This document shows positions 1,435 through 2,110 of a DNA stretch of 9,608 bases, piece after piece. The position numbers and the translations under genes are program-made. The DNA is taken from IMG/VR virus record IMGVR_UViG_2645727905_000011, one strand, 5' to 3'. The notes beneath the pieces are model-generated. The model was not told the origin of the DNA, made no database searches, and worked only from the letters and a program-made list of their open reading frames with translations. Each line of letters starts with the position of its first letter. The stretch's first letter is position 1. This DNA comes from a virus (taxonomy: Duplodnaviria > Heunggongvirae > Uroviricota > Caudoviricetes).

Positions 1435-1619
1435 GCCGCGATCCGTTCTGGTGCCGTAACGTGCTCAGCCCGTCGAAGTTGCGGGAAAAATGGGATGAGC
1501 TTTCCCTGCGCTTATCACCGTCCGTCAGCACGTACACCGAAAAACGCGAAGACCCGTACTTCAAATCCAGTTACGACAACGTGGACTACAGCCAGATCCC
1601 GGCAGGATTCAGGGGGTGA
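1435..1619 (+). pseudogene. C-terminal fragment of a DnaT-domain replication (primosomal-like) protein
   Basis: Translation ends ...DNVDYSQIPAGFRG, strikingly like the E. coli DnaT C-terminus (...SQIPPGFRG as I recall). Upstream part of the frame (1302-1434) runs antisense through the ybcO-like homology, so the N-terminus is absent. Stop overlaps the next gene start (GTGA). Confidence 0.5.
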
Positions 1620-2110
1620 TCATAAGTCTTTTGAATGAAGTTCAGAAATTCATTGAAGCCCATCCGGGATGTACTTCCGGAGACATTGCGGATGCTTTTG
1701 CAGGTTACTCACGGCAGCGCGTTCTGCAGTCAGCAAGCAAGTTACGTCAGAGTGGGCGTGTGGCTCACCGTTGTGAAGGAGATACACGCAGACATTTCCC
1801 GCGCCTGACTGAGAGAGCGCAGGAACCGGAACCACAACCAGTTCGAGAAACCAGACCTGTGCGCAATTTCTATGTCGGCACTAACGATCCACGGGTGATT
1901 TTGTGCCTGACCCGCCAGGCTGAAGAACTGGAGTCCAGGGGCTTATACCGTCGTGCTGCAACCGTGTGGATGGCGGCATTCCGTGAAAGCCACTCCCAGC
2001 CAGAACGAAACAATTTTCTGGCGCGTCGTGAGCGGTGCTTACGGAAAAGCAGCAAGCGCGCTGCATCGGGTGAAGAGTGGTATCTGTCAGGGAATTACGT
2101 GGGGGCTTAA
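1616..2110 (+). CDS. Putative regulator: N-terminal winged-helix domain plus C-terminal PerC-like domain
   Basis: 164 aa; C-terminal LTRQAEELESRGLYRRAATVWMAAF resembles the PerC/Pch signature; N-terminal half looks like a winged HTH. No in-frame ATG near the 5' end, so start is GTG 1616 (overlapping upstream stop) or TTG 1631. Confidence 0.55.
   Translation: MIISLLNEVQKFIEAHPGCTSGDIADAFAGYSRQRVLQSASKLRQSGRVAHRCEGDTRRHFPRLTERAQEPEPQPVRETRPVRNFYVGTNDPRVILCLTRQAEELESRGLYRRAATVWMAAFRESHSQPERNNFLARRERCLRKSSKRAASGEEWYLSGNYVGA

Follow-up and report, generated by a model that had tools for sequence, protein, structure and literature searches.

The yfdN locus and its phage context

The window, by which we mean the whole 9,608-nt stretch of DNA analyzed here, is a degraded lambdoid prophage, flanked by yegL/ibs on one side and mdtA on the other. 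An open reading frame on its plus strand runs from a GTG at 1616 to a TAA at 2108–2110 and encodes 164 amino acids, as the sequence-only reading of this DNA had described, and the prophage origin put forward in that reading is supported. Both ends of the frame overlap its neighbors: the GTG overlaps the stop codon of the upstream gene (GTGA), and the TAA overlaps the next ATG (TAATG). The exact protein is present at NCBI as WP_072128613.1, “PerC family transcriptional regulator”. Judged by its sequence, the frame is a copy of yfdN, a member of the PerC family’s two-domain (“long”) branch. The same gene is found in the K-12 prophage CPS-53/KpLE1, in phages SfV (orf40), SfII, SfIV and mEp460 (gp44), and in Stx2c phages, with 94–99% identity over 164 aa (96% for SfV orf40). 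Clusters with 98% identity to YfdN hold thousands of sequences, some of which are labelled as CPS-53 (KpLE1) prophage proteins. YfdN also matches PHROG 1324, “transcriptional activator”, over its full length (E 4e-78, aa 3–163 against profile positions 15–166 of 172).

A 2018 paper already named yfdN as the K-12 PerC homologue, and the gene was deleted there merely to exclude possible background (PMC5931665). The gene, its PerC-family label and its phage setting are thus on record in RefSeq, Pfam, PHROGs and the literature; since it was already named and annotated, the frame described here is a rediscovery and carries little weight as a discovery. No function of YfdN is reported in the literature that we searched. 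The features of the locus are as follows.

1353–1619, plus strand: 3ʹ remnant of a replication-initiator gene of the SfV/mEp460 type, a pseudogene without its N-terminus (RefSeq)
1604–1616, plus strand: Shine-Dalgarno-like purine runs, conserved in phage homologues
1616–2110, plus strand: yfdN coding sequence, 164 aa from GTG; PerC family transcriptional regulator, WP_072128613.1
1619–1801, plus strand: predicted winged helix-turn-helix domain, aa 2–62 (AlphaFold2, Foldseek, weak HMM matches)
1622–1624, plus strand: ATA at the position of the family’s conserved ATG start (DNA alignment with four phage homologues)
1808–1873, plus strand: Pro/Glu-rich linker, aa 65–86, predicted to be disordered (pLDDT below 50)
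1889–2068, plus strand: three-helix domain of PerC/ANR type, aa 92–151, of which aa 100–151 (nt 1913–2068) are the Pfam PerC part
2069–2107, plus strand: C-terminal tail, aa 152–164, predicted to be disordered (pLDDT below 50)
2110–2763, plus strand: dam, phage N-6-adenine methyltransferase (Pfam Dam E 1e-45, TIGR01712 E 2e-76)
2760–3086, plus strand: small LexA-type protein consisting of the DNA-binding domain only (Pfam LexA_DNA_bind E 3e-19)
3083–3439, plus strand: RusA-family resolvase, the last gene of the inverted module (Pfam RusA E 8e-14)

In intact phages, cI and cro are followed by two or three small genes, a replication initiator (HTH_36 + Phg_2220_C) and yfdN, and then by genes for an adenine methyltransferase, a LexA DNA-binding-domain-only protein, RusA, a KilA-N/ANT-type protein, an HNH/DUF968 protein and Q. 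From the initiator through yfdN, the adenine methyltransferase, the LexA-like gene and RusA to Q, this order is maintained in SfV, mEp460, ST64B-like phages and F1055, and in metagenomic relatives at 27–35% identity; it holds in L008 (35% identity) and L015 (27%). The phage orthologues of YfdN have two domains, with the initiator upstream and dam downstream, and the window copy has the same arrangement with the initiator as a remnant. This remnant matches PHROG 391, “replication initiation O-like”, at profile positions 214–298 of 298 (E 5e-42), and its TGA (1617–1619) overlaps the GTG of yfdN. An intact initiator precedes yfdN in SfV, mEp460, L008 and L015, and these four also have the LexA-like gene at the equivalent position. 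The methyltransferase after yfdN in L008 (5444–6268) belongs to PF02086 (D12 class), whereas those in the window (2110–2763) and L015 belong to PF05869 (Dam); by these family assignments, the L008 gene is a non-orthologous replacement at a conserved position.

Part or all of a 2.3-kb query around yfdN (window 1200–3500) was matched in 3281 of 5426 complete E. coli genomes, 1598 of which have at least 80% of it, and in most genomes the match spans query positions 152–2218, corresponding to window positions 1351–3417. Near-identical copies of yfdN occur in functional temperate phages (SfV, SfII, SfIV, mEp460, Ayreon and many Stx2c/Stx2a converting phages), and more distant copies in ST64B (68% identity) and F1055 (45%). 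YfdN also occurs in phages of Shigella, Salmonella and Klebsiella, and its closest relatives include CPS-53 prophage proteins of K-12. Among 1.84 billion representative proteins, searched exhaustively with phmmer, only 98 matched at an E-value of 0.001 or better, and about 30 of these are full-length two-domain relatives with 23–48% identity. That both domains are kept in these ~30 relatives despite such divergence points to purifying selection on the two-domain architecture. When distant relatives were compared with deposited phages by tblastn, the matches were again to phages of the SfV/ST64B type, together with two Klebsiella phages, and no new annotated context emerged.

The conserved gene order bears on one possible role. 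In relatives ranging from near-identical to 27% identity, yfdN directly follows the initiator, and the codons of the two genes overlap or abut. Neither a helicase nor a loader is among the annotated genes of these early operons, and this raised the hypothesis that YfdN is a second phage replication protein: as partner of the Phg_2220_C-type initiator it would recruit or load the helicase of the host and so fill the slot of lambda P or P22 gp12. We consider this very unlikely. In the infectious phage cdtI, all that is left of yfdN between the initiator and dam is its first 28 codons (L007 3501–3584), and an IS interrupts yfdN in Stx2a_WGPS2. Two-domain relatives (~30% identity) are found away from any initiator (L012 5001–5480 and L013 5001–5498): one lies in a PICI-like island with an integrase, an ImmA/HTH pair and AlpA, and the other lies after recT and before an acyltransferase gene. 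Moreover, YfdN has no similarity to known loaders, and its family matches are to PerC, ANR and winged-helix regulators only.

The deletion in cdtI is natural, and the annotated dam start lies inside the yfdN remnant. This phage, which was published as an inducible prophage according to a title cited in PMC5136569, would be useful for testing whether yfdN is dispensable. We also tried, and rejected, the idea that YfdN is a C-protein-like controller of the downstream methyltransferase: relatives occur without a methyltransferase, and cdtI keeps dam without yfdN.

Two predicted domains, a linker and a tail

A PerC/Pch-like signature, GLYRRAATVWMAAF, had been noticed in the C-terminal half of the protein in the sequence-only reading, and it lies at aa 109–122 (nt 1940–1981). 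Family membership is borne out by an HMM search: Pfam PerC (PF06069) matches aa 100–151 with 36.1 bits (E 7.9e-9), above the gathering cut-off of 22.6 bits, and all 31 aligned diverged relatives of YfdN match the same model; such agreement goes far beyond chance. However, YfdN covers only positions 5–56 of the 90 in the model, whereas a Pch-type protein of 104 aa covers positions 1–89 (149 bits). Alignment of the two proteins by BLASTP gave 41% identity over 44 aa (YfdN 102–145 against Pch 7–50), and the motifs LE-x-[KR]-GLYRRAA-x-W and R-x-x-CL are common to both. YfdN thus shares just a helical core of ~50 residues with PerC/Pch. PerC of EPEC and PchA/B/C of EHEC are short activators of LEE1 that counteract H-NS silencing. 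Pch proteins have a single domain and 104 aa, in contrast to YfdN, which at 164 aa falls outside the ~90–105 aa of the single-domain proteins and has two predicted domains joined by a linker; it lacks the C-terminal half of Pch and adds an N-terminal winged helix, the linker and a C-terminal tail of its own. The sizes and homology of PchD and PchE were not found in PMC6265319.

An AlphaFold2 model of YfdN, built on 17 homologues, predicts aa 92–151 to be three antiparallel helices with a pLDDT of about 90. The cysteine of the R-x-x-C-L motif in helix 3, Cys141 (window 2036–2038), is the single invariant cysteine in all 31 relatives, and the Pch-type protein (L006 3043–3357) also has this cysteine, at Cys46.

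The same model, Foldseek and weak HMM matches agree on an N-terminal winged helix, as the sequence-only reading had suggested. Helices are predicted at aa 2–15, 21–27 and 33–46, followed by strands at 49–54 and 57–62, with a pLDDT of 83–89; this is the H1-H2-H3 and β-hairpin wing of a winged helix, within aa 2–62 of the predicted structure. Foldseek aligned the domain with winged helices of the ArsR/SmtB, BlaI/MecI, MarR, Fur and Z-alpha types at 1.6–2.5 Å over ~60 residues, with weak E-values (0.06 or higher), which is no surprise for a domain of this small size. Its sequence weakly matches the MarR-like PHROG 1687 (E 8e-5) and NCBIfam BilQ, and the N-terminal domains of relatives weakly match Penicillinase_R, MarR_2 and HTH_24; taken together, these matches are to the MarR, BlaI and PaaX types. 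The predicted fold is thus that of MarR, ArsR/SmtB and BlaI/MecI, but YfdN is without their ligand-/metal-binding or dimerization domains, and the sequence similarity to them is marginal. A sequence-profile search with the YfdN family alignment found no solved relative in the PDB. The domain is foreign to classical short PerC/Pch proteins, as had also been proposed, since the Pch-type protein fills nearly the whole PerC model by itself. A description of this predicted domain was not found in the literature searched, and we regard it as an incremental annotation.

Between the two domains, the Pro/Glu-rich linker varies in length among homologues and is a gap-rich region of alignments A1 and A2. 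The N-terminal domain of the family follows the pattern V..FI..NPG....IA.AF........V.RA..RL...G...R.....Y., and the C-terminal part follows A..LE..GL.RRAATVWL.AF..S.....R.....RR..CL, then the tail W.LAG.Y.G. In YfdN, the tail motif W-x-L-[AS]-G-x-[YF]-x-G is at aa 155–163 (window 2078–2104), and G159 and G163 are at least 90% conserved among relatives of 23–48% overall identity. Within a tail predicted to be disordered, the motif looks like a docking peptide for a partner. It is absent from Pch.

The helical half of YfdN also resembles the ANR family (Aar, Rnr; NF033650), whose three-helix proteins of ~60 aa bind AraC-family activators and H-NS. The ANR model matches aa 98–144 with 23.6 bits (E 3.4e-5), below its curated cut-off of 32 bits; it matches 20 of the 31 relatives, with a best E-value of 4e-9. 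The published ANR motif, A-x3-E-x7-A-x3-W-x2-A (PMC4983702), fits A102, E106, A114, W118 and A121. By these sequence comparisons, YfdN is related to the ANR family but is not a member of it, and its predicted three-helix core looks like the same kind of module.

Could YfdN then be an ANR-like anti-activator that works by protein binding alone, sequestering an AraC-family activator or H-NS, with a winged helix that does not bind DNA? The matches to the ANR model and the conserved motif are consistent with this idea, as is the report that a PICI PerC-like protein acts as a repressor, which its authors suspected to be an ANR protein (PMC11773190). We nonetheless find it unlikely. ANR proteins have a single domain and accompany an AraC-family gene, whereas YfdN has two domains, scores below the ANR cut-off, and is encoded in a module without an adjoining AraC-family gene. 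In addition, the conserved basic recognition helix and wing of the predicted N-terminal domain (K42, R44, R48 and R59) are more simply explained by DNA binding.

A mutated start codon in a scrambled prophage remnant

The non-ATG start noted in the sequence-only reading is real, and its cause is a mutation of the conserved ATG. In SfV, mEp460, an ST64B-like phage and F1055, the homologous gene starts with an ATG that matches window 1622–1624, where a G-to-A change at 1624 has given ATA. Over 9608 nt, the nearest genome, NZ_CP148378.1, differs from the window at just two positions, and this is one of them. The second difference is at window 6130 (C here, T in that genome), the second base of codon 50 in an anti-RecBCD-like frame (5982–6275), which encodes Thr here and Ile or Met there. 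The ATA allele is rare: the 60-mer of the start region is matched in 1913 of 5426 complete E. coli genomes, but the exact 60-mer around the ATA in 0 of the 5426, and the protein of the ATA allele is on 3 contigs as against at least 999 for the ATG allele. In all other respects the frame is identical to the common allele and intact over its 164 codons.

In E. coli, ATA initiates translation very poorly. With the ATG mutated, GTG 1616 and TTG 1631 are the sole remaining starts, and either could still initiate, probably less efficiently. Two purine runs that resemble Shine-Dalgarno sequences lie upstream: AGGA (1604–1607) is 8 nt before GTG 1616, and AGGGGG (1611–1616) is 5 nt before the conserved start position at 1622, and this run precedes the ATG start in the family. 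The pairing of GTG 1616 with AGGA may allow useful translation. Among the phage homologues, F1055 has no in-frame GTG, and the GTG of the ST64B-like phage is out of frame.

The surroundings of this copy are scrambled. The mosaic region is window 1–4035, with junctions near 1351, 3417 and 3882/3883. The yfdN module (about 1351–3417, plus strand), which consists of the initiator remnant, yfdN, dam, the lexA-like gene and rusA, is inverted between Q-ninH-rusA-ybcOʹ and dnaBʹ-ʹO fragments of another lambdoid backbone, both of which are on the minus strand. Hence, the window copy differs from the phage orthologues not only in having ATA for ATG but also in its setting, which is an inverted, truncated module of a mosaic remnant rather than an intact early operon. 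The cI/cro/N region is absent; kil directly abuts the ʹO fragment, which indicates that N, cI and cro were deleted. Several neighbors of the module are annotated as pseudogenes. The proteins of the two rusA genes share only 39% identity, and there is no relationship between the two initiator fragments. No inverted DNA repeats that could account for the inversion were found at the module junctions, and both junctions occur together in just two of the listed genomes (H1 and H2). No σ70-like promoter was detected on the plus strand in 1000–1616, and a promoter/terminator scan near yfdN gave nothing above shuffle expectation; the scan was a simple one, and cryptic or read-through transcription is possible. 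Rfam has no match within the window.

Elsewhere in the window, an HNH endonuclease gene (4998–5465, plus strand) lies between genes for a Rad52/Rad22-type recombinase (4290–4997) and ssb (annotated 5462–5968), and its ends abut or overlap both neighbors. In the pL-side accessory region, a frame at 6988–7713 (plus strand) encodes a protein with a signal-peptide-like N-terminus, which RefSeq calls a lysozyme inhibitor LprI family protein; this may be a moron gene. A further frame (7937–8248, plus strand; hypothetical in RefSeq) encodes 103 aa with a C-x2-C ... C-x2-C arrangement, and its similarity to the N-terminal zinc-binding region of ClpX is weak (E about 0.002–0.004, far below the cut-off).

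This yfdN copy is probably weakly expressed or silent, and the combination of a damaged start codon and a scrambled context argues against a host regulatory role of this locus. It is quite conceivable, at odds somewhat short of even, that the frame at 1616–2110 is a decaying remnant without function, whatever the gene does in an intact phage. The loss of the ATG through a rare SNP is consistent with decay, as are the pseudogene neighbors, the inversion and truncation of the module, the deletion of the immunity region and the lack of a detected promoter upstream. On the other hand, the 164-codon frame has been kept, the in-frame GTG with its upstream AGGA persists, and dam, the lexA-like gene and rusA are intact downstream. 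Decay of this copy is compatible with a role of the intact gene as an early regulator.

Possible functions of YfdN

Does YfdN act on virulence genes of the host? In line with the prophage-to-host cross-talk suggested in the sequence-only reading, YfdN could work as an analogue of PerC/Pch and activate ler (LEE1) or further virulence loci on the chromosome of an attaching-and-effacing host. It has the PerC core in common with Pch, and Group 1 Pch proteins activate ler (PMC5931665). Moreover, the T3SS effector genes espJ and nleG lie just outside the window in the same prophage remnant, which suggests that the host has the LEE. However, the C-terminal half of the PerC model is missing from YfdN, and in this copy the start codon is damaged and no promoter was detected. 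The matches to the module DNA in more than half of complete E. coli genomes, and the occurrence of the gene in phages of Shigella, Salmonella and Klebsiella, indicate that yfdN has no fixed link with the LEE, than which its family is far more widespread. Among PerC-like proteins, one from a PICI represses LEE1 and others are without effect (PMC11773190), and PchE represses adhesion (PMC7369912). Since members of the family activate, repress or do nothing, a match to it is no evidence for LEE activation. We conclude that the virulence cross-talk reading is unsupported, and that a LEE activator is a highly improbable identity for YfdN.

What, then, is the function of YfdN in an intact phage? We propose, with a probability of roughly 0.6, that it is an accessory early regulator of SfV-type phages, with a winged helix that binds DNA and PerC/ANR-like helices that contact proteins. 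DNA binding by the N-terminal domain is suggested by its predicted fold. Protein–protein contacts by the C-terminal three-helix module are suggested by its sequence relationship to Pch and ANR proteins and by its generic TPR/MIT-like fold; these contacts might be with a second copy of YfdN, or with nucleoid or regulatory proteins such as H-NS-family silencers. Gene order shows that yfdN, tightly packed between the initiator and dam, belongs to the early rightward operon of an intact phage and is expressed from it, and this position is what would make YfdN an accessory regulator acting early after induction or infection. Studies of the related proteins are consistent with such a role. Pch relieves silencing by H-NS/StpA/Hha and associates with DNA, although it is without a recognized DNA-binding domain (PMC4764244). 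ANR proteins bind AraC-family activators directly (PMC4983702), and they act on H-NS via protein–protein interaction (PMC10148876). The binding of DNA and of partners by YfdN itself is a prediction, since our literature search found no experiments on YfdN or its two-domain relatives.

A more specific version of the early-regulator proposal, which we offer tentatively and regard as possible but rather doubtful, is that proteins of the YfdN type are DNA-tethered PerC/ANR counter-silencers or anti-activators that link prophage induction to host gene expression. The winged helix would find specific DNA, and the helical module, perhaps with the tail, would bind or displace H-NS-family silencers or host activators. 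If this were true, prophage induction would reprogram gene expression in the host or the phage, and PerC and ANR would belong to a single superfamily that binds proteins by a shared mechanism.

The residual value of this locus is modest: YfdN is very common in E. coli prophages, yet we found no experimental work on it. Its architecture suggests a way in which the helical module of PerC/ANR, poorly understood so far, could be directed to DNA.
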